A stretch of DNA of 64,000 nucleotides from a virus (IMGVR_UViG_637000265_000001); one strand, 5' to 3'. Shown: positions 1,699 through 57,861, counted from the stretch's first letter. Translations and numbers: made by a program. The notes: generated from the letters alone by a model not told the origin.

Positions 1699-2286
1699 TC
1701 AGCCCCGGCTGGATCCAGTCATCAGGCTCTTTCTTAAAGGGGGAGTATTGAAATCACGAAGAAGAGCCTCCCGCACCGCAGCATCCATGTCTGCACCACT
1801 GGCAAGTGCTTCAATCTCTGCCGCCACCTGCAAATACCCCATGCAACGGCCAATGCGTTTCATAACTCTGGTGTTTTCGTCTTTCAGGCATCTGATAGCG
1901 AGATTAATAATTTTCAGGCAGTGATGATGCGATGCCCGGACAGGTTTTCCGTTCTCATAAACGACGAACTCACCCTCTTCACAGGAAACCCTGAAAGGCC
2001 GATGGGGTTCCTGGTCTTTATCCGGTGCAGACGCAATAAAATCACTTTTATGCTCTTCCTCTCCGGCACTGTTAACCGTAATGACGTACTCAGGCCGCAG
2101 GTAAGCCGCCTCTTTTTCTGACAATGCGGCCGGTAAAAACTTTTCCTGCAAAAACTTCATAAAAGTCTCGTGAGCGACTTTGTGGCAGTAATCGTAAATC
2201 GCCGCATAATGCTCATCGCGGCGTTTGTTTTCATCTTCAGAACTCACCAACGCCGACAAATTTTTTATTAAGCTCAGTGATTTCAT
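1699..2286 (-). CDS. hypothetical protein inserted between pinholin and endolysin (195 aa)
   Basis: Tracked ORF with no recognisable domain. A 30-codon ORF in another frame (2237..2329) precedes and overlaps it. Confidence 0.55.
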   Translation of the reverse strand: MKSLSLIKNLSALVSSEDENKRRDEHYAAIYDYCHKVAHETFMKFLQEKFLPAALSEKEAAYLRPEYVITVNSAGEEEHKSDFIASAPDKDQEPHRPFRVSCEEGEFVVYENGKPVRASHHHCLKIINLAIRCLKDENTRVMKRIGRCMGYLQVAAEIEALASGADMDAAVREALLRDFNTPPLRKSLMTGSSRG

Positions 2287-2548: not shown

Positions 2549-2610
2549 AGCCTCACCTCCGCAAATAACGGATGGCGTAGTTTTACACTGAGAAATGAAA
2601 GGGATTTGAA

Positions 2611-2632
2611 AAGAAAAACCCGCAAAAGCGGG
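2611..2632 (-). terminator. intrinsic terminator 62 nt upstream of the pinholin start (tR'-like position)
   Basis: On the minus strand CCCGC-TTTT-GCGGG is followed by TTTTTCTTTT. Confidence 0.7.
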
Positions 2633-2655
2633 CGAAACGATATATACAGTAAGGA

Positions 2656-2833
2656 AAGCACTCTATCCAACAAACCACCCACAGTTAATCGGAATAAAAG
2701 CAGAGTGCTTATGAATGATCGCCTGCCCGAAGGTTAGTATTTCTGCACAGCAATTTTGCAAAAAAAGCGATCATTCATAACTTAAACGTCTTTCAGTCAC
2801 TCCGGGATTTCCCATCATCGCAGACTGAAAGAC
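2656..2833 (-). other. three consecutive long-stem hairpins; candidate structured leader or ncRNA
   Basis: Perfect inverted repeats of 9 bp (2656-2664/2702-2710), 14 bp (2709-2722/2767-2780) and 11 bp (2788-2798/2823-2833). No credible ORF. Strand inferred from neighbours. Confidence 0.3.
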
Positions 2834-3302
2834 TCTAACTGGAGCGGGCAGCGGGAATCGAGGTATCGAAGATAATCAGCCGCTAACCATTTGCTTCCTA
2901 AAGGATGATGAATCCTTGTGGTTACAGTTATGGTTACACATTAATTTATCTCTGGTCAAGTCCTCTCGTGACTCTGGAACGAGTAACCGAAGTCCTAACT
3001 TTAAGACAGTGGCCCCAATCGTCCAGACTTGAAAGGGGCCAAGGGGGGAGAGGCACCGACCTTTGTCTATTAGATACCTACAGAGATTTTTGTGAGATTT
3101 TTTTAATACAAGGTCATAACCTACCGCCACTAGCCCCCACCGACCGCAAAGTGAAGACCTGTAAGCACCAGAGCAATAGCTATTGCGGGCATACTGCTGA
3201 TTGTTATTATCTATCACTCCCTGTAGAGCATCTGGCAGACCAAGTGGACACAGAGGACGAGCTCAAACAACTCCTGTAAGCTCATGGATGTACTCCTTAT
3301 GT

Positions 3303-4442
3303 TCACTCAGGGTTTATAGTTACTCTGGGGGTAGTAAACCGAATAACATGTATCAACGGGAAAGAGGCGTCTTTCTCAACGTCAAACTCACCTGCTTTCA
3401 CCTTAACGGAACCAGTAGCCAACACATCGACCACACTGATTAACTCAAGGTCATACCCAGCAGTGTTACTATTTCGGGTCACTTTGACATCTACCGTCTT
3501 AGCGTCTTTAGTTGACCTGAAAGAGATAGAAGCGAACCGCTTAGGCAGGAGATAGATACCTGTATCATCGCCCGCATAGCTGCATACAGTGCAGCCCAAT
3601 AGCTCACTAATATCCTCATGACCTGCGCGTTGAGCGGCTCGGTCCAAGATTGCCTCAAGTCTCTCAGGGACCAATACAGCGTAATCGCTCAGTGTATTTC
3701 CCAACTCGACCGGAAGATTCAACGCTAATGTATCCAGAAGATCTTCAGCTTGATCAGACGGTTTACCACTTAGTGGGGCTGCCTCAATGATTTGAAGGTC
3801 TGGCGTATCTTTCAGGACATCGACCACAGCGGCGAACATCTGGCGGCAGTATTGAACCTGCATATCACCTACAGTCTGGATTAATGCCCCCTCGGTCCAA
3901 CCGCCCATCATATCGAAGTCAGATACATGAGTAGTAGCAGAACACAGGATGCCCGTCTTATTGGTCTCAGGGTTCAACACTGGGGTGACAGTTACGCTTG
4001 CCCCTTTGATGGCTGTGGTAGACGGAGCATCCTTAGCTGGATTAAACGCGCCATTATGCTTAAAGCGGACGGTGCGATTCTGGAGAGCCTGACGGCGAAT
4101 AGGCGTAGGGTCAGTGCCGTATGGGCGAAACTCACAAGGGAAGACATTCTCCATTACAGCAGTGCGGAAGTCTCCATCATTGAAGGTCTCATCCAAAGAG
4201 TCCTCCAGCGCCTGAACAAAATCATGTGAATCATTCCCGAAGGCCATCGGACGGCCTGAGCGGTCCGTAAAGCCTACGTTGAGAACTTGGGCGTCTTGAC
4301 CATTGGTCATCTGAACATAGTCAGTGCGTGAGATGTCAGTGCCCCATATAGACCCCTTAATGATTTGACCGTCTTTATCTCGCTGAGGCTGACGCAGAGA
4401 AGCCAGTGAGGATGCTTTGTTAATTTGATTTGTAATAGACAC
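3303..4442 (-). CDS. HK97-fold major-capsid-like protein (380 aa), orphan
   Basis: Tracked ORF 3303..4520. GTG at 4442 with AAGGAG 7 nt upstream is preferred. The C-terminal pattern DYAVLVPERLEAIL...LLGCTVCSYAGDDTGIYLLPKRFASISFRS and the E-loop-like ASVTVTPVLNPETNKTGILCSATTHVSDFDMM resemble capsid proteins. Fold was judged by eye only. Confidence 0.5.
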   Translation of the reverse strand: MSITNQINKASSLASLRQPQRDKDGQIIKGSIWGTDISRTDYVQMTNGQDAQVLNVGFTDRSGRPMAFGNDSHDFVQALEDSLDETFNDGDFRTAVMENVFPCEFRPYGTDPTPIRRQALQNRTVRFKHNGAFNPAKDAPSTTAIKGASVTVTPVLNPETNKTGILCSATTHVSDFDMMGGWTEGALIQTVGDMQVQYCRQMFAAVVDVLKDTPDLQIIEAAPLSGKPSDQAEDLLDTLALNLPVELGNTLSDYAVLVPERLEAILDRAAQRAGHEDISELLGCTVCSYAGDDTGIYLLPKRFASISFRSTKDAKTVDVKVTRNSNTAGYDLELISVVDVLATGSVKVKAGEFDVEKDASFPLIHVIRFTTPRVTINPE

Positions 4443-4543
4443 GATGAATATCTCCTTATGGTATGAATGCACTACGTAAAAAGTAACTGGTGACACCATT
4501 GGTCTTATCTCAGAATCCAAGCAGCGCCACCGAAAGTTATCAG

Positions 4544-4954
4544 TTACAGCCCGAAAGCGGCCCCTTTATTGCCGAAGCGTTTAATCAATGCTTCCTCTCG
4601 GGCTTTACGTTCAGCGACCGCCTTAGCAATCTCTTCTGGTGTAGCATGAATAGCAGCCATACGTTCTTGATGTGCCTTAGCTTCTTTACGTCGGCGTTCA
4701 GCCTCTTGGCGCTCCTGTGCGTTGCTTTGAGCCCACCAGCGGGAATACTTGCCGTAATCACCTGCATCAAGACCAGCGGCGTGAATATCGTTAAGAATAC
4801 GATTTGAGTTCGCCATGTCAGAGCCTGTACTGTTCAGCATGGTTGTAACGACAATTTCGGTGAAATACTTAGTGGATAGCTCCTGACCGAATACCAGTAC
4901 AGTTTCTTTGTCAGCGCTCAGTGCGATATCCAGTTTGCGATAAGAAATAGACAT
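4544..4954 (-). CDS. scaffold-like or decoration-like charged helical protein (136 aa)
   Basis: Frame of tracked ORF 4544..4999. ATG 4954 with AAGGAG RBS. C-terminal half is highly charged (ERQEAERRRKEAKAHQERMAAIHATPEEIAKAVAERKAREEAL). Lies directly upstream of the capsid-like gene. Confidence 0.45.
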   Translation of the reverse strand: MSISYRKLDIALSADKETVLVFGQELSTKYFTEIVVTTMLNSTGSDMANSNRILNDIHAAGLDAGDYGKYSRWWAQSNAQERQEAERRRKEAKAHQERMAAIHATPEEIAKAVAERKAREEALIKRFGNKGAAFGL

Positions 4955-5081
4955 GTTTGTTTCTCCTTTGAAAAGATGTTTTAAAAGGATTAAACTCATC
5001 GGTCTTCCATAGGTATTCCTACGGCGTCTCCCCGTATCTTGGTCAGTTCAAAAGGTGGTGCTAGCTGTGCTAGTGGGTTAA

Positions 5082-5276
5082 TTACATGAAATCTCTTGGG
5101 GTCAGCCCTGCGTCAACCGCCATGAGACAGAGGGCAGCTTTAGAGTAATACGGGCGGTTTTCCTTGGCAGGCAGACCCAGAGTAGCTATCAGTGCCTTGG
5201 TGGGTACCACCATCAGGCGTAACGCCTTACGGCCTTCTGGTGTCCTTGGGTCAATCTTGATTGTGTTATTAGTCAT
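5082..5276 (-). CDS. hypothetical 64-aa protein
   Basis: Tracked ORF. Starts 3 nt after the stop of the upstream truncated ORF. Confidence 0.4.
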   Translation of the reverse strand: MTNNTIKIDPRTPEGRKALRLMVVPTKALIATLGLPAKENRPYYSKAALCLMAVDAGLTPRDFM

Positions 5277-5279
5277 GAA

Positions 5280-5614
5280 TTACCTCCCCTCCAGCTTTGC
5301 TACTGCCTGTATGTGTTGCTGTTTAGCAGCGTCGCTTCCATGAACCGCTATGACCTTTCTGTGCATCTTGAGTACGTTTTCAGGTCGGCTGAAGAACTCC
5401 AGCCCCTTAGCGTTAAACCGAATGTTTATACCGTTTGGGTTGAATCGATGGTCAGTAGGTTTGATAATTCGAAAGTACTCCACATAGTTTGGATTGACTG
5501 ACCACTCGCCACTGAAAGGATGTACTCGGAACAGCTTGCGCTCTTTCTTAAGGATGGTCATCAGTTTCTGAGCGGGTAGACCATTGGCCTTGCAGTAATC
5601 GCCCCAAGTCACGC
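5280..5614 (-). pseudogene. 5'-truncated ORF cut by IS911
   Basis: The tracked ORF 5280..5687 reads out of the IS911 left end. Only residues from ..VTWGDYCKANGLPAQKLM.. onward are non-IS sequence. Confidence 0.5.
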
Positions 5615-5686
5615 TGAAGTGGCACACTGAATTTGGCCACCTGAACAGAGGTGATATGCTCACCTCAGAACAACACAGGTGCTCCA

Positions 5687-6856
<1,170 letters not shown>

Positions 6857-6864
6857 CCACTTCA

Positions 6865-7914
6865 GCCACTTCACCTTTCTTTCCGAACCTTGTTGATCAC
6901 CTTCTGGTTAAGCATCACACGGCTGATGGCGTTGAAGATGGCATTTCAATCTGCTACTTCAAGCCATACTCGCAAGGCCGTGCTCGCTGGCAGGGTGACA
7001 CAATCCACGGCGTGTGGTTTGACGAAGAGCCACCATACAGCATTTATGGCGAAGGTCTTACCCGTACCAACAAATACGGGCAATTCTCAATTCTGACGTT
7101 TACCCCGCTGATGGGGATGTCTGACGTTGTTACCAAGTTCCTGAAGAACCCCAGCAAGTCGCAGAAAGTGGTCAACATGACCATCTATGACGCTGAGCAC
7201 TATACCGACGAGCAGAAAGAGCAAATCATCGCATCATATCCCGAGCATGAGAGAGAGGCGCGTGCTCGCGGTATTCCTACGATGGGTAGTGGTCGAATCT
7301 TCCAGATACCGGAAGAGACGATTAAGTGTCAGCCGTTCGAGTGTCCTGATCACTTCTACGTAATTGGCGGGATGGATTTCGGATGGGATCACCCACAGGC
7401 GCAAGTTCAGCTTTGGTGGGATAAGGAGGCAGACACAATCTACGTTTCACGCGTGTGGAAGGCGAAAGAAAAAACAGCCGTTCAGGCGTGGGGAGCCGTT
7501 AAATCATGGGCGCATAAAGTGCCAACCGCATGGCCTCATGATGGAAACCAGCACGAGAAGGGCGGCGGTGAGCAGCTCAAAGGGCAGTATGCAGACGCTG
7601 GATTTATGATGTTGCAGGAGCATGCGACATGGCCTGATGGCGGTAACGCTGTTGAGCCAGGCATCACTGAATTGCGCGACATGATGCTCGATGGTCGCTT
7701 CAAAGTATTCAATACCTGTGAGCCATTCTTTGAGGAGTTCCGCCTCTATCACCGTGATGAAAACGGGAAAATCGTCAAGCTTAACGACGACGTGCTATCC
7801 GCCGTTCGCTATGCATACATGATGCGCCGCTTCGCAAAAATGATGCGCGACATCAAAAAACCAAAAGAGAAAAAGATACCAGCCCCAATCAGGCCCATCG
7901 CACGGAGAACTTAA
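6865..7914 (+). pseudogene. terminase large subunit, P22 gp2 / Sf6 gp2 type, 5'-truncated by IS911
   Basis: The reading frame continues from the IS911 right end. Only the C-terminal (nuclease) part remains, directly upstream of the P22-type portal. Confidence 0.85.
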
Positions 7915-11005: not shown

Positions 11006-12300
11006 TGGCATTAAATGAAGGTCAACTGGTCACGTATGCTCTGGATGAAATCATCGAAACCGTCCAGAACCTGACGCCAATGGCGTCAAAAGTGACAAAA
11101 TACACCCCTCCGGCAGAATCCATGCAGCGTTCAAGCAACACCGTGTGGATGCCTGTTGAGCAGGAAGCGCCAACCCAGACTGGCTGGGATTTAACTGGCA
11201 ACGCAACCGGGATTCTGGAACTCTCCGTGAAGTGCAACATGGGCGATCCGGATAACGATTTCTTCGAGCTTCGTGCAGATGACCTGCGTGATGAGCGTTC
11301 TTACCGTCGCCGCATCCAGGCATCCGCCAAAAAACTGGCGAATAACATTGAGTCAGCGATTGCCAAACAGGCAACTGAAATGGGCTCGCTTGTTGTTCAC
11401 GATACCCGCGCAATTGGTCCATCGACTGGCCTGCCTGGCTGGGATTTTGTGTCTGATGCAGAGCGACTGATGTTCTCCCGTGAGCTAAACCGCGACATGG
11501 GCATCAGTTACTTCCTGAACCCTGACGATTACCGCAAAGCAGGCCGCAACCTGGTAGATGGTGACATCTTCGGGCGCGTTCCTGAAGAAGCATATCGAAA
11601 CGGTACTATTCAGCGTCAGATTGCTGGCTTTGATGAAATTCTTCGCTCACCGAAACTTCCGGCAGTTACCAAGTCAACCGCGACTGGTGTAACTGTTTCT
11701 GGTGCGCAGAAGTTTAAGCCGCAGGCATACACCCTTGATACCGATGGTAACAAAGAGAACGTCGACAACCGTGTTGCAACGGTGACCGTATCCTCCACCA
11801 CCGGATTTAAGCGCGGCGACAAAATCAGCTTCACTGGTGTGAAGTTCCTGTCTCAGATGGCGAAGAATGTGCTGACTGATGACGCGACTTTCTCAATCAC
11901 CCGTGTGATCGATGGTACTCACATCGAAATCACGCCGAAGCCGATTGCGCTGGATGACGCGTCACTGACAAAAGAAGAGAAGGCTTACGCTAACGTAAAC
12001 ACCTCTCTTGCTGATACCACTCCGGTAAACGTTCTGAACGTGGCAACAACCACCGCTAACGTGTTCTGGGCTGATGACTCAATCCGCCTGCTGTCTCAGC
12101 CGATCCCGGTAACCCATGAACTGTTTGCTGGCATGAAAACGTCTTCCTTCAGCATTCCAGGTATTGGTGTTAACGGCATCTTCGCAACGCAGGGTGATAT
12201 CAACACTCTGTCTGGTAAGTGCCGTATTGCTGTGTGGTATTCAGCATGTGCTGTACGACCAGAGGCAATTGGTGTTGGTCTGCCTAACCAGACCGCGTGA
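11005..12300 (+). CDS. coat (major capsid) protein, P22 gp5 type (431 aa)
   Basis: MALNEGQ..MQRSSNT.WMPVEQE...GVGLP.QTA is collinear with the remembered P22 gp5. Confidence 0.95.
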
Positions 12301-12344
12301 TAACCAGAGGGAGCTTCGGCTCCCGTTTTTATCTGGAGACAAGC

Positions 12345-57146: not shown

Positions 57147-57861
57147 GTTAATAAATGGCAATGTCATCAAAATGACAAGCATTGAAATCGCTGAGTTGGT
57201 GGGTAAGCGTCATGACAATGTGAAACGTACCATCGAAACGCTGGCTAAAAATGGTGTTATCCGGCTTCCTCAAATTGAGGATTGTGGAAGAATCAATGGG
57301 TTAGGCTTAAATCAAAGTTTTTGTGTGTATGTATTCGAAGGCGAACAAGGAAAGCGAGACAGTATTGTCGTTGTAGCCCAGTTGTCGCCGGAATTCACCG
57401 CTCGTCTTGTTGACCGTTGGCGAGAGCTTGAAGAATCTGCGGTTAATATCCCAAAAACGCTACCAGAAGCGTTGCGCCTTGCTGCTGACCTTGCTGAGCA
57501 GAAAATGCAACTGGAAAACCAGCTCGCAATTGCCGCACCTAAAGTTGAGTTTGCCGATCGCGTTGGCGAGGCCAGCGGAATTTTGATTGGAAACTTTGCA
57601 AAGGTTGTCGGTATTGGTCCAAACAAACTGTTTGCGTGGATGCGCGATCACAAAATCCTTATTGCTTCAGGTACCCGGCGCAATGTGCCAATGCAGGAAT
57701 ATATGGATCGCGGCTATTTCACAGTGAAAGAAACAGCGGTCAACACAAATCACGGAATACAGATATCGTTCACCACAAAAATCACCGGGCGTGGTCAACA
57801 GTGGCTGACCAGAAAGCTGCTCGATAACGGAATGCTGAAAGTAACAGGGGAGGCTGCTTAA
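57139..57861 (+). CDS. Rha-family regulator fused to a KilAC/ANT antirepressor domain (240 aa)
   Basis: MTSIEIAELVGKRHDNVKRTIETL (Rha motif). KVEFADRVGEASGILIGNFAKVVGIGPNKLFAWMRDHKIL (ANT motif). Confidence 0.7.
   Translation: MNELINGNVIKMTSIEIAELVGKRHDNVKRTIETLAKNGVIRLPQIEDCGRINGLGLNQSFCVYVFEGEQGKRDSIVVVAQLSPEFTARLVDRWRELEESAVNIPKTLPEALRLAADLAEQKMQLENQLAIAAPKVEFADRVGEASGILIGNFAKVVGIGPNKLFAWMRDHKILIASGTRRNVPMQEYMDRGYFTVKETAVNTNHGIQISFTTKITGRGQQWLTRKLLDNGMLKVTGEAA

Follow-up and report, generated by a model that had tools for sequence, protein, structure and literature searches.

Why should a protein with the look of a phage capsid be encoded just upstream of the lysis genes of a Shigella flexneri prophage, with neither portal, protease nor terminase gene beside it? 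The window analysed here, a 64,000-nt stretch of viral DNA (IMGVR_UViG_637000265_000001), carries such a gene in a cassette of four minus-strand ORFs, all of which were recovered by ORF calling together with the peptides that a sequence-only reading had quoted from them. That reading proposed the remnant of a further phage, the remnant of a satellite head module, or a capsid-like protein kept as cargo in the late leader. On the evidence set out below, the cassette is probably the right part of an integrative element dependent on lytic phages of the T7-like group (Studiervirinae), i.e., a phage satellite, and the second of these proposals was essentially right. The features of the locus are collected in Table 1.

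Table 1. Features of the cassette, of its right end and of the flanking DNA, in window coordinates
Feature	Position	Strand	Remarks
IS911 (context), complete, 1250 bp	5615..6864	+	truncates the element's Rha-like gene
Rha / KilAC-type (antirepressor-like) gene, C-terminal 110 codons	5280..5614	-	abuts IS911
64-aa protein, function not assigned	5082..5276	-	conserved operon member in enterobacterial elements (60-76 aa)
136-aa DUF6971 protein	4544..4954	-	ATG 4954, stop 4544, preceded by AAAGGAG
HK97-fold capsid-like protein, 379 aa	3303..4442	-	GTG 4442 preceded by AAGGAG, stop 3303
Hydrophobic micro-ORF, 23 codons, MSLQELFELVLCVHLVCQMLYRE, own RBS	3214..3285	-	directly after the capsid-like gene
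Concatemer-junction mimic (terminal-repeat start of T7-group phages)	3035..3115	-	core CACAAAAATCTCTGTAGGTA/TCTAATAGAC...TCCCCCC
Hairpin AAGGAT-TCATC-ATCCTT	2901..2917	-	~40 nt inside the element's right end; conserved
attR, last 22 nt of prophage-borne tRNA-Gly(UCC), TCGATTCCCGCTGCCCGCTCCA	2840..2861	-	displaced 3' end
Lambdoid late-leader DNA, tRNA-Gly to holin gene, 290 nt (context)	2549..2839	-	intrinsic terminator 2618-2633

The largest ORF begins, as had been proposed, at the GTG behind AAGGAG, but it encodes 379 residues rather than 380. The HK97-type fold suggested for its product was found in the predicted structure, which has an N-arm, an E-loop hairpin, a long spine helix, and P and A domains; the stretch described as E-loop-like forms a beta-hairpin (residues 149-174) directly ahead of the spine helix (184-210), which is the correct topology. 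Confidence in the model is moderate (pLDDT 70.6), and its best structural matches are closed encapsulin-like shells. At the sequence level, the protein has no match in Pfam, PHROG, PADLOC or the PDB, permissive thresholds included, and it belongs to no curated capsid family (Pfam phage-coat clan, PHROG head proteins). Comparison of its profile with T7 gp10 indicated no relationship (hhalign probability 0.15), and one UniRef label, 'DUF4043', was not reproduced by Pfam. The family is a small orphan group, with 59 clusters among 1.84e9 representatives. A homologue of the gene is nevertheless found in 113 of 5426 complete E. coli genomes (~2%), and the only one of these carriers inspected, M217, contains an intact element.

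The protein directly upstream is a member of DUF6971 (Pfam PF22318, 1.8e-43, above the gathering score) and is identical to SF216, with 100% identity over 136 aa to the three chains of PDB 5EUR, an entry that names it merely 'uncharacterized protein'. The reference for SF216 is Kim et al. 2017 (FEBS Lett 591:3692), as cited in PMC7132871. The protein consists of a small alpha/beta head and two long charged helices at the end (AF2 pLDDT 81.6), and an F-G motif is conserved at the DUF6971 C-terminus. A recognisable DUF6971 homologue is present in 17 of the 35 genome loci and, where detected, always lies directly upstream of the capsid-like gene. It may act on the capsid-like protein as a scaffold or assembly partner; similarity searches detected no resemblance to known scaffolds. 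Searches of the full-text literature yielded nothing relevant on DUF6971 and no mention of SF216 in the context of a phage-dependent element.

One way to read the pair is as an encapsulin-like nanocompartment unlinked to phage particles, with the capsid-like protein as its shell and the DUF6971 protein as cargo targeted by the conserved C-terminal peptide. This we consider very improbable. The shell protein has no Linocin_M18 or encapsulin match in Pfam, its gene has integrase, Rha and DUF6971 genes as neighbours, and no ferritin, peroxidase or desulfurase cargo is encoded beside it. Moreover, the genes are driven by T7-group phage promoters, within an integrase-bearing element that carries a phage genome-end mimic (see below).

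The two remaining ORFs are less conspicuous. The Rha-like remnant, which was also compared by tblastn, matches Pfam ANT (0.0068) and the PHROG anti-repressor family (4.6e-6). Its full-length relatives are proteins of 244-253 aa with a PF09669 domain; the window gene has lost its N-terminal Phage_pRha domain to IS911. The 64-aa protein is 59-70% identical to its counterparts in three related loci (L003, L005, and L007) and has no match in Pfam, PHROG or PADLOC. Downstream of the cassette lie the lysis genes already recognised from the sequence, namely those for a holin of the P21-S type (Pfam PF04971, 5.5e-35), for a lysozyme, and for Rz.

The DNA between the capsid-like gene and the holin gene (2549-3302), previously taken for about 750 nt free of ORFs, proved to hold a micro-ORF, a genome-end mimic, a tRNA-Gly fragment and a late leader with a terminator. 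The micro-ORF peptide is identical in L001 and L039, and analogous hydrophobic ORFs of 21-45 aa occur in L005 and L055. The 22 nt of attR are identical to the 3' end of the tRNA-Gly(tcc) gene of phage phi467, whose downstream DNA continues beyond this point; the late-leader segment is 99.7% identical to that of more than 2000 E. coli prophages and of phages phi467 and vB_EcoS-689R5. The attR junctions of the window, L001, L003 and L005 can be aligned, the window having the phage tRNA-Gly(UCC) 3' end followed by phage DNA, and its homology to the element of E. coli LR-64-1 ends exactly at the attR of the latter. ARAGORN found no intact tRNA in the window, an Rfam search of the window region and of the intact E. 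coli element returned nothing except tRNA, and a sigma-70 promoter scan gave matches at chance level. The hairpin was seen in the junctions of the window, L001, L003, and L005, and in a Klebsiella copy compensatory changes preserve its pairing; it may serve as an arm site or as an RNA element.

These alignments place the Shigella element within the tRNA-Gly(UCC) gene of a lambdoid prophage late leader, between the late promoter and the holin gene, and not in chromosomal glyU. Its position upstream of the lysis genes results from the site-specific insertion of an integrase-bearing element into a prophage tRNA gene. This origin is at odds with the earlier suggestion of a capsid-like cargo kept in the late leader, or more generally of a moron selected for expression from the late promoter. 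The cassette does have the orientation of the late operon, with the expected pR' region on one side of it and the holin gene on the other. However, the prophage tRNA-Gly is interrupted exactly where the element interrupts chromosomal tRNA-Gly genes elsewhere, the more than 2000 related prophages have an intact tRNA-Gly and no cassette, and none of the related loci surveyed outside Shigella has lysis genes next to the cassette. A moron seems extremely unlikely to us.

At its other side, the cassette is bounded by an IS911 (IS3 family) of 1250 bp with terminal inverted repeats TGAAGTGG... and orfA/orfB ORFs, which matches IS911-annotated records. Its flanks lack a target-site duplication (CGC/IS/GCC); the junction is therefore chimeric, which points to recombination between two IS911 copies. 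The far side of the IS adjoins a truncated P22/Sf6-type terminase gene (6850-7914), and the P22-type genes beyond it are a separate fragment, unrelated to the cassette, in a region crowded with prophage remains and insertion sequences. Nowhere in the window is there an integrase, a T7-group promoter or a Rha N-terminus; at up to 5 mismatches no T7-group promoter was found, and the core motif is absent from the remnant. The layout is identical in five S. flexneri chromosomes, which we count as fixation. Judged against intact relatives, positions 2840-5614 (minus strand) are the right-hand 2.8 kb of an integrative element whose integrase, cargo, promoters, and Rha N-terminus were removed by an IS911-mediated rearrangement. 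Because of this loss, the Shigella copy is most likely an inert remnant, its ORFs still intact.

Intact relatives delimit what the fossil once belonged to, which by sequence comparison is a family of integrative elements of about 6.1-6.7 kb in Enterobacterales and Pseudomonas. Reading from the left, they begin with attL in a tRNA-Gly 3' end, although the one Pseudomonas copy examined in detail (L028) is inserted in a nadB-like gene. There follow a tyrosine integrase of 480-545 aa, a variable cargo slot that often holds the anti-T7 defence gene PD-T7-4 (E 1e-97 in intact members), between one and three promoters of the kind read by the single-subunit RNA polymerase of local T7-like phages, and TTAAAGAC repeat arrays resembling the T7 left end. 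The operon comes next (Rha-like protein, small protein, DUF6971, HK97-fold capsid-like protein, and hydrophobic micro-peptide), and the right end is formed by a copy of the helper concatemer-junction motif and then attR. In 24 loci the direct repeats are spaced 6267-6747 bp apart (median 6512), and 31 of the 35 genome loci encode an integrase homologue on the same strand, 3-4.5 kb upstream. The observation that the pair lacks portal, protease, and terminase genes holds not only for the window but also for about 90 related loci. Pfam scans of all ORFs of representative members identified only integrase, Rha, DUF6971, and DUF4145, and the virion and lysis gene sets are incomplete in all six members inspected for them (L001, L005, L028, L039, L055, and L061), as expected of a satellite. 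Genes for replication, excisionase, portal, protease, and terminase could not be recognised in the element, so that the replication, excision, and packaging steps would have to come from the helper or from unrecognised genes. The relatives do possess their own integrase and att sites for excision, of which the window copy retains attR alone.

The same relatives bear on whether the cassette is the head-module remnant of an ordinary temperate phage from which IS911 and deletions removed the portal, protease, and terminase genes. A helical protein does precede an HK97-fold gene here, amid prophage debris and IS elements, but in the intact relatives the bounding direct repeats are no more than 6.3-6.7 kb apart and those three genes are missing as well, the element stops on its right side in the window at a precise att junction and not at a deletion scar, and neither PHROG nor Pfam gives a match to phage capsid families. 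This origin, and with it the remnant of a further phage proposed earlier, is hardly credible for an element of such size.

A circular or tandem form of the element was found in a single example. The two ends of the metagenome contig L055 overlap by 141 nt, and L056, which comes from a different assembly, is a circularly permuted version of it in which the capsid-like gene runs into int. Ten other metagenome contigs of 6.4-7.2 kb were considered as circles and rejected: terminal overlap occurs in none and both direct repeats are present in 6/10, so that they represent integrated elements, with contig breaks where the element ends. A scan of IMG/VR gave five loci, all at the ends of 21-76 kb contigs, and no stand-alone contig of ~6.5 kb or with terminal repeats, hence no virome support.

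The sequence-only reading had missed the signals that link the element to a helper, i.e., the genome-end mimic and the att site in the window and the phage-RNAP promoters in intact relatives. Exact 23-nt T7 consensus promoters occur twice in L001 and once each in L005 and L061, and in the latter two the T7-type promoter has K11-type promoters on both sides, as judged from the annotated promoters of K11; both consensus types are found exactly in E. coli and Klebsiella copies. Fifteen Pseudomonas loci instead carry gh-1-type promoters (by comparison with those annotated in gh-1), all on the + strand and located between int and the capsid-like gene, and T7-like variants are present in L039 and L055. 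The promoters match the T7-like phages local to each host, and all aim into the operon. A vector origin of the T7 promoters was rejected, since they lie in conserved element context in complete chromosomes, K11-type promoters adjoin them, and Pseudomonas members have gh-1 promoters in their place.

The second signal is a copy of the helper genome end. The motif can be aligned to the terminal-repeat boundaries annotated in T3, T7, and gh-1, and a regular expression for it gave 35 matches on both strands of 0.9 Mb; one was stray and the others lay in elements or at phage ends. A host-matched junction copy is present in every related element. In the window, 28 of the 29 core positions are shared with Enterobacter phage NJ2 (Berlinvirus), and terminase is predicted to cut between 3075 and 3074. 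When 2.3 Gb of phage DNA was searched by BLAST with the non-coding DNA of the window, the best E value was 2e-4; the best 12 matches all fell in unannotated DNA of ~40 kb phages of Klebsiella, Enterobacter or Yersinia, and the two of these phages that were inspected are both Studiervirinae. The likeness covers the left boundary motif and the first ~40 nt of the terminal repeat. Packaging of T7 itself requires the whole terminal repeat and its duplication. In L001, the closest full-length relative, a Berlinvirus/T3-type junction is combined with T7-type promoters. Together, the RNAP promoters and the concatemer-junction motif constitute, at the sequence level, the coupling to a helper that is expected of a satellite, and from them we infer that the element is packaged and transferred by the helper.

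The promoters could also be explained by a mobile defence island that is never packaged, in which the helper RNAP acts solely as a sensor of infection and turns on interference proteins, among them PD-T7-4 and the capsid-like protein, the latter as a decoy by which the assembly of T7 heads is poisoned. The experimentally validated anti-T7 cargo in the same element, the operon driven by phage-RNAP promoters, the lack of encoded portal and terminase, and the structural likeness to closed encapsulin-like shells all agree with it. However, sensing leaves unexplained the host-matched copy of the genome-end junction in every member, the constant length of 6.3-6.7 kb among very divergent members, and the existence of a circular or tandem form. 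Pure defence therefore appears unlikely, and interference and satellite transfer can in any case coexist.

For the satellite, a life cycle may be proposed in which the RNA polymerase of the infecting helper turns on the element operon and the element is copied by the helper replisome; the arrangement of phage promoters in tandem ahead of AT-rich repeats is like that of the primary origin of T7. The capsid-like protein would then build or remodel shells, with DUF6971 as assembly partner, the helper terminase would cut the junction mimic, and the helper portal, core, and tail would complete a transducing particle, from which the DNA would be put into a tRNA-Gly of the next host by Int. Simple scaling gives no neat fit of the 6.5 kb unit to a T=1 or a T=3 shell; six units (~39 kb) make up roughly one T7 genome, so that the capsid-like protein might not serve small heads. 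In its full form, the proposal is of an undescribed ~6.5 kb satellite family of T7-like virulent phages in Enterobacterales and Pseudomonas, which senses infection by helper-RNAP promoters (sometimes for several helper types in tandem), replicates by the helper replisome, is cut and packaged via the junction mimic, has its own orphan capsid with DUF6971/SF216, and carries anti-T7 cargo such as PD-T7-4, the Shigella cassette being its fossil. We hold this composite picture to be somewhat better than an even bet. Searches of the full-text literature found no description of a satellite of T7-group phages.

T7 and its relatives are textbook virulent phages, widely used in phage therapy and biotechnology. 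If the proposal is true, it extends satellite biology to the T7 group with a first system of its own, supplies a genomic setting and a rationale for PD-T7-4, a validated defence gene, and provides a functional context for the orphan crystal structure of SF216/DUF6971. It would also offer a minimal and experimentally tractable satellite system available in public strains, e.g., K. pneumoniae ATCC 13883, which has an intact copy. With a homologue of the capsid-like gene in ~2% of complete E. coli genomes, the outcome of therapy with T7-like phages may be affected. For the Shigella window the consequence is modest: its genes are element debris, and the case illustrates that prophage-borne tRNA genes can capture tRNA-targeting elements.

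Parts of this element have been met before in other settings. In the passages searched of Vassallo et al. 2022 (PMC9519451), PD-T7-4 is said to be one that 'often overlaps an integrase gene' and is treated as a single defence gene beside an integrase; these passages name neither a 6.5 kb element nor the promoters, capsid gene or genome-end mimic belonging to it. The part with PD-T7-4 is missing from the window copy. The temperate, tail-less mini HK97 elements of gut viromes (Aguilar et al. 2025, bioRxiv 10.1101/2025.06.18.659913) are likewise small integrase-bearing genomes with an encapsulin-like HK97 protein and a scaffold but without portal, tail or terminase. They differ in size (~8.9 kb), in having RepA or a helicase and sigma factors, and in gene set and capsid family, and neither T7-type promoters nor junction mimics were reported for them. 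The HE-PICI (PMC10111431) also resides within a prophage late region, oriented with late transcription; there, however, the surrounding prophage is the helper and a clade of integrases targets late genes. Purposeful embedding of this kind was rejected for the present element, as its integrase targets tRNA-Gly generally, the lambdoid prophage just carries one, and the helper signals are not lambdoid but indicate T7-like phages; the embedding looks accidental.

The PLEs of Vibrio cholerae and the PICMIs of Vibrionaceae are comparable in being small and integrated, in responding to infection by a lytic phage, and in exploiting the replication and packaging machinery of that phage, and the minimal size of PICMIs is similar to that of our element. 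PLEs are ~18 kb long and have their own replication initiator, and PICMIs reportedly integrate next to fis, use three core proteins for excision and replication, and have no capsid genes. We know of neither a PLE nor a PICMI that uses promoters for a helper single-subunit RNAP or T7-type junctions. Pfam scans of representative members detected no marker genes of PICIs, P4-like elements, PLEs or PICMIs (pri-rep and Stl/AlpA; Sid, Psu, Delta, and alpha; PLE RepA; and PICMI Int-AlpA-Prim next to fis). The PICMI paper (PMC10803314) describes a Prim gene, and in the passages searched T7-like phages and capsid proteins are not mentioned. In contrast to the capsid-size redirection exerted by SaPIbov5 Ccm, P4 Sid, and PLE TcaP, the capsid-like protein is unrelated in sequence to gp10 of the presumed helper. 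The cf-PICIs (e.g., EcCI2; PDB 9gyi), finally, are elements of ~10-15 kb that encode a full head and packaging set, i.e., portal, protease, connectors, and terminase, and take only tails from temperate helpers. Our element, at 6.3-6.7 kb, encodes no portal, protease, head-tail connectors or terminase, and it differs from the cf-PICIs in carrying helper-RNAP promoters and a mimic of the helper genome end, which point to virulent T7-like phages as its helpers.

The window holds a truncated member of a probable new phage-satellite family, the intact arrangement of which is seen in the element of E. coli LR-64-1 (L001). There, a chromosomal tRNA-Gly(CCC) is followed by a 544-aa tyrosine integrase (Int; DUF6538 + Phage_integrase), 1.3 kb of non-coding DNA, the antirepressor-like Rha, a 71-aa ORF, DUF6971 and a 373-aa protein, and about 430 nt further on by an 18-nt repeat of the tRNA 3' end, exactly where the homology of the window to L001 ends. 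The right (attR) junctions of the window, L001, the Pectobacterium element L003 and the Klebsiella element L005 align base for base. Past the window junction come 22 nt of a tRNA-Gly(UCC) 3' end; lambdoid phages, phi467 among them, have this tRNA about 290 nt upstream of S. Beyond this fragment lies the phage's own downstream DNA; ARAGORN found no intact tRNA in the window. The element was therefore integrated site-specifically into a prophage tRNA gene. Its position upstream of the lysis genes, which the sequence-only reading had ascribed to a possible role as late-leader cargo, thus reflects the suitable tRNA of the prophage and not selection. About 40 nt inward from attR is a hairpin, the pairing of which is kept in the Klebsiella copy through compensatory changes (AAGGAT/ATCCTT versus AGACGG/CTGTCT).

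Positions of features in the window and in related elements
Feature	Sequence	Position	Strand	Remark
Truncated ORF	window	5280-5614	-	ORF listing
64-aa ORF	window	5082-5276	-	ORF listing
136-aa ORF	window	4544-4954	-	ATG behind AAAGGAG
379-aa ORF	window	GTG at 4442	-	start 8 nt behind AAGGAG
Micro-ORF	window	3214-3285	-	
Micro-ORF	L001; L039; L005; L055	~17249; ~6228; ~11174; 4805-4942		
Junction mimic	window	3035-3115		
Hairpin	window	2901-2917	-	
195-aa ORF	window	1699-2286	-	PHROG 1085
IS911, complete	window	5615-6864		1250 bp; flanks CGC and GCC
Truncated large terminase gene	window	6850-7914		P22/Sf6-type
Rha-family N-terminal match	window	57163-57243	+	59% over 27 aa
CACCACTAG / CAGCTAGCACCACC-type repeats	window	5050-5080	-	64-aa ORF/DUF6971 gap
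CACCACTAG / CAGCTAGCACCACC-type repeats	L001	14354-14403		upstream of Rha
TAGGGTCTCTCTC array	L001	14013-14196		~15 tandem copies
CCTGTGTGGT array	L001	13354-13391		4 copies
Tandem phage-RNAP promoters	L061; L005	3891-4007; 7504-7620		three, two specificities
Conserved non-coding blocks	L001; L039; L055	13590-13780; 2960-3090; 1060-1190		

Scanning genomes turned up 35 loci, in Pectobacterium, Klebsiella, Pseudescherichia and about 30 Pseudomonas. Of the 35, 31 have an integrase homologue 3-4.5 kb upstream in the same orientation, a DUF6971 homologue is recognisable in 17, directly upstream of the capsid-like gene in every case, and the direct repeats are spaced 6267-6747 bp apart (median 6512; 24 loci). 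Of 5426 complete E. coli genomes, only 2 have the cassette at about 93% identity; in 113, the chromosome has a single homologue of the capsid-like gene, at about 65% nucleotide identity and in many cases at a similar coordinate (~977 kb). E. coli M217 (L061), the sole one of the 113 inspected, has a PD-T7-4-bearing element at the glyU tRNA-Gly beside the ETT2 region. The single Pseudomonas member whose target gene was examined (L028) has no tRNA as its target; it is integrated at the 3' end of a gene resembling nadB (L-aspartate oxidase family), and this gene end is restored by a 171-nt imperfect repeat (5626-5796 / 12161-12331). One 6487-bp member was recovered from two independent metagenome assemblies as circular permutations in which int follows the capsid-like gene, and therefore a circular or tandem form exists.

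The four minus-strand ORFs described in the sequence-only reading are all present in the ORF listing, the largest encoding 379 aa from its GTG, not 380. The 379-aa protein has no sequence match in Pfam, PHROG, PADLOC or PDB and no profile similarity to T7 gp10, and only 59 clusters among 1.84 billion representatives make up its family. Its AlphaFold2 model, built from 42 homologues, is of moderate confidence (pLDDT 70.6, pTM 0.64), and Foldseek against viral models returned 153 matches at E<=1e-3, with most of the matches listed being annotated as capsid or head proteins. The model thus favours the proposed HK97-type capsid fold, and the suspected E-loop appears in it as a predicted hairpin (149-174) followed by a spine helix (184-210). 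Portal, protease and terminase, noted earlier as missing beside the pair, are likewise encoded by no member examined, and a search for relatives with these genes in an ordinary head module, portal and terminase adjacent, revealed no such module. The 136-aa protein is a DUF6971 protein (1.8e-43) and matches SF216 of S. flexneri M90T (PDB 5EUR; Kim et al. 2017, as cited in PMC7132871) at 100% identity; its model shows a small alpha/beta head and then two long, charged helices, with a conserved FG motif at the C-terminus. The truncated ORF encodes the C-terminal region of a protein of the Rha/KilAC type, and a second, unrelated Rha-family match lies in another prophage region. Directly 3' of the capsid-like gene, enterobacterial members conserve a hydrophobic micro-ORF (21-45 aa, own RBS), which may encode a membrane peptide, e.g., a holin, antiholin or toxin.

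The L001 non-coding stretch contains two perfect 23-nt T7 class III promoters, TAATACGACTCACTATAGGGAGA, directed into the operon from Rha to the capsid-like gene. The elements of Klebsiella ATCC 13883 and E. coli M217 carry a tandem trio (K11-type, exact T7, exact K11; the K11 calls were compared with K11's annotated promoters), which suggests that a single element may respond to several helper species. Variants such as ATTAAGACTCACTATAGGGAGA occur in other enterobacterial members. Among the 12-mers that Pseudomonas elements share in the interval from int to the capsid-like gene, the most frequent, TTAAAAACCCTCACT..., represent the promoter of gh-1, a phage of P. putida; this motif is found in 15 loci, without exception on the + strand and in that interval. 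Non-coding blocks downstream of the promoters are well conserved and have no Rfam match; about 130 nt preceding the Rha start codon are also conserved in L001 and L055, and one block, a long hairpin immediately 5' of the Rha RBS, is similar to T7 RNase III processing sites. Short CACCACTAG / CAGCTAGCACCACC-type repeats recur in the element non-coding DNA.

In every member, the DNA downstream of the capsid-like gene contains CA.AAAAATCT(G/C)... and, about 40 nt further on, at least five C in a row (usually TCCCCC). The same motif lies 8-9 nt ahead of the annotated terminal repeat in T3, T7 and gh-1, and its position therefore corresponds to the concatemer junction. Pseudomonas elements copy the gh-1 version near-exactly (GAATCTGACAGAAAAATCTGAA.GGTCACC), and the window version, CACAAAAATCTCTGTAGGTA followed by TCTAATAGA, agrees with Enterobacter phage NJ2 at 28 of 29 positions. 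When 441 nt of window non-coding DNA was compared with all phage records by BLAST, the best 12 matches all fell in unannotated DNA of ~40 kb phages that infect Klebsiella, Enterobacter and Yersinia; both of those inspected, NJ2 (Berlinvirus) and vB_YpEc11 (Helsettvirus), are Studiervirinae. The Shigella/E. coli LR-64-1 lineage mixes T7-type promoters with a Berlinvirus/T3-type junction. TTAAAGAC/CCTAAAGAC arrays in the elements are similar to repeats beside T7's left terminal repeat. L001 also contains TAGGGTCTCTCTC and CCTGTGTGGT arrays, with GGGTC within each unit of the former and TGGTC at each unit junction of the latter, which are recognition sites of the T7 primase. These arrays, of a type absent from the other members inspected (L039, L055), may serve as a priming hot-spot or decoy.

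Judged from sequence, the simplest reading is that the family comprises satellites of T7-like phages. The operon would be switched on by the helper RNA polymerase and the element copied by the helper replisome; the HK97-fold protein and DUF6971 would act on head assembly, the junction mimic would be processed by the helper terminase, and the transferred DNA would be inserted into tRNA-Gly by Int. The cargo, too, ties the elements to T7-like phages: in several members, the gene after int is PD-T7-4 (E 1e-97), a defence gene selected experimentally for T7 protection and noted to 'often overlap an integrase gene' (PMC9519451). The main rival is a defence island that is triggered by phage RNA polymerase and never packaged. 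A defence island leaves the junction mimic, the tight element length and the circular form unexplained.

The S. flexneri copy keeps the last 110 Rha codons, the 64-aa ORF, DUF6971/SF216, the capsid-like gene, the micro-ORF, the junction mimic and attR, but has lost int and cargo. All phage promoters are gone, and a promoter scan found sigma-70 signals no better than chance; by its sequence, this copy is most likely inert debris. The IS911 that truncates it has no target-site duplication at its flanks, and its far side adjoins a P22/Sf6-type large terminase gene that has lost its 5' part. The junction is therefore an IS recombination product, and this region was shaped by at least one recombination between IS911 copies, an inversion or a deletion. 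The exact 379-aa protein occurs in five S. flexneri chromosomes, including CP000266.1, all with the same layout (IS911, 64 aa, DUF6971, 379 aa, holin), and therefore the window derives from S. flexneri and the arrangement is fixed in that lineage. Downstream lie a P21-S-type holin, a 195-aa ORF, lysozyme and Rz. A 104-aa DUF1327 gene takes the place of the 195-aa ORF between holin and endolysin in other S. flexneri strains (L041 versus L042-L045), which makes this a variable slot of the lysis cassette.

To our knowledge, no satellite of T7-like phages is known, and a full-text literature search found neither a description of one nor a paper mentioning DUF6971. The cf-PICIs, the Ccm of SaPIbov5, PLE, the PICMIs, the HE-PICIs and the gut 'mini HK97' elements are all related in concept to the element described here. 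However, each of them differs from it in gene set, size, helper type and hijack signals, and on the basis of these differences we class the element as a new family of phage satellite.
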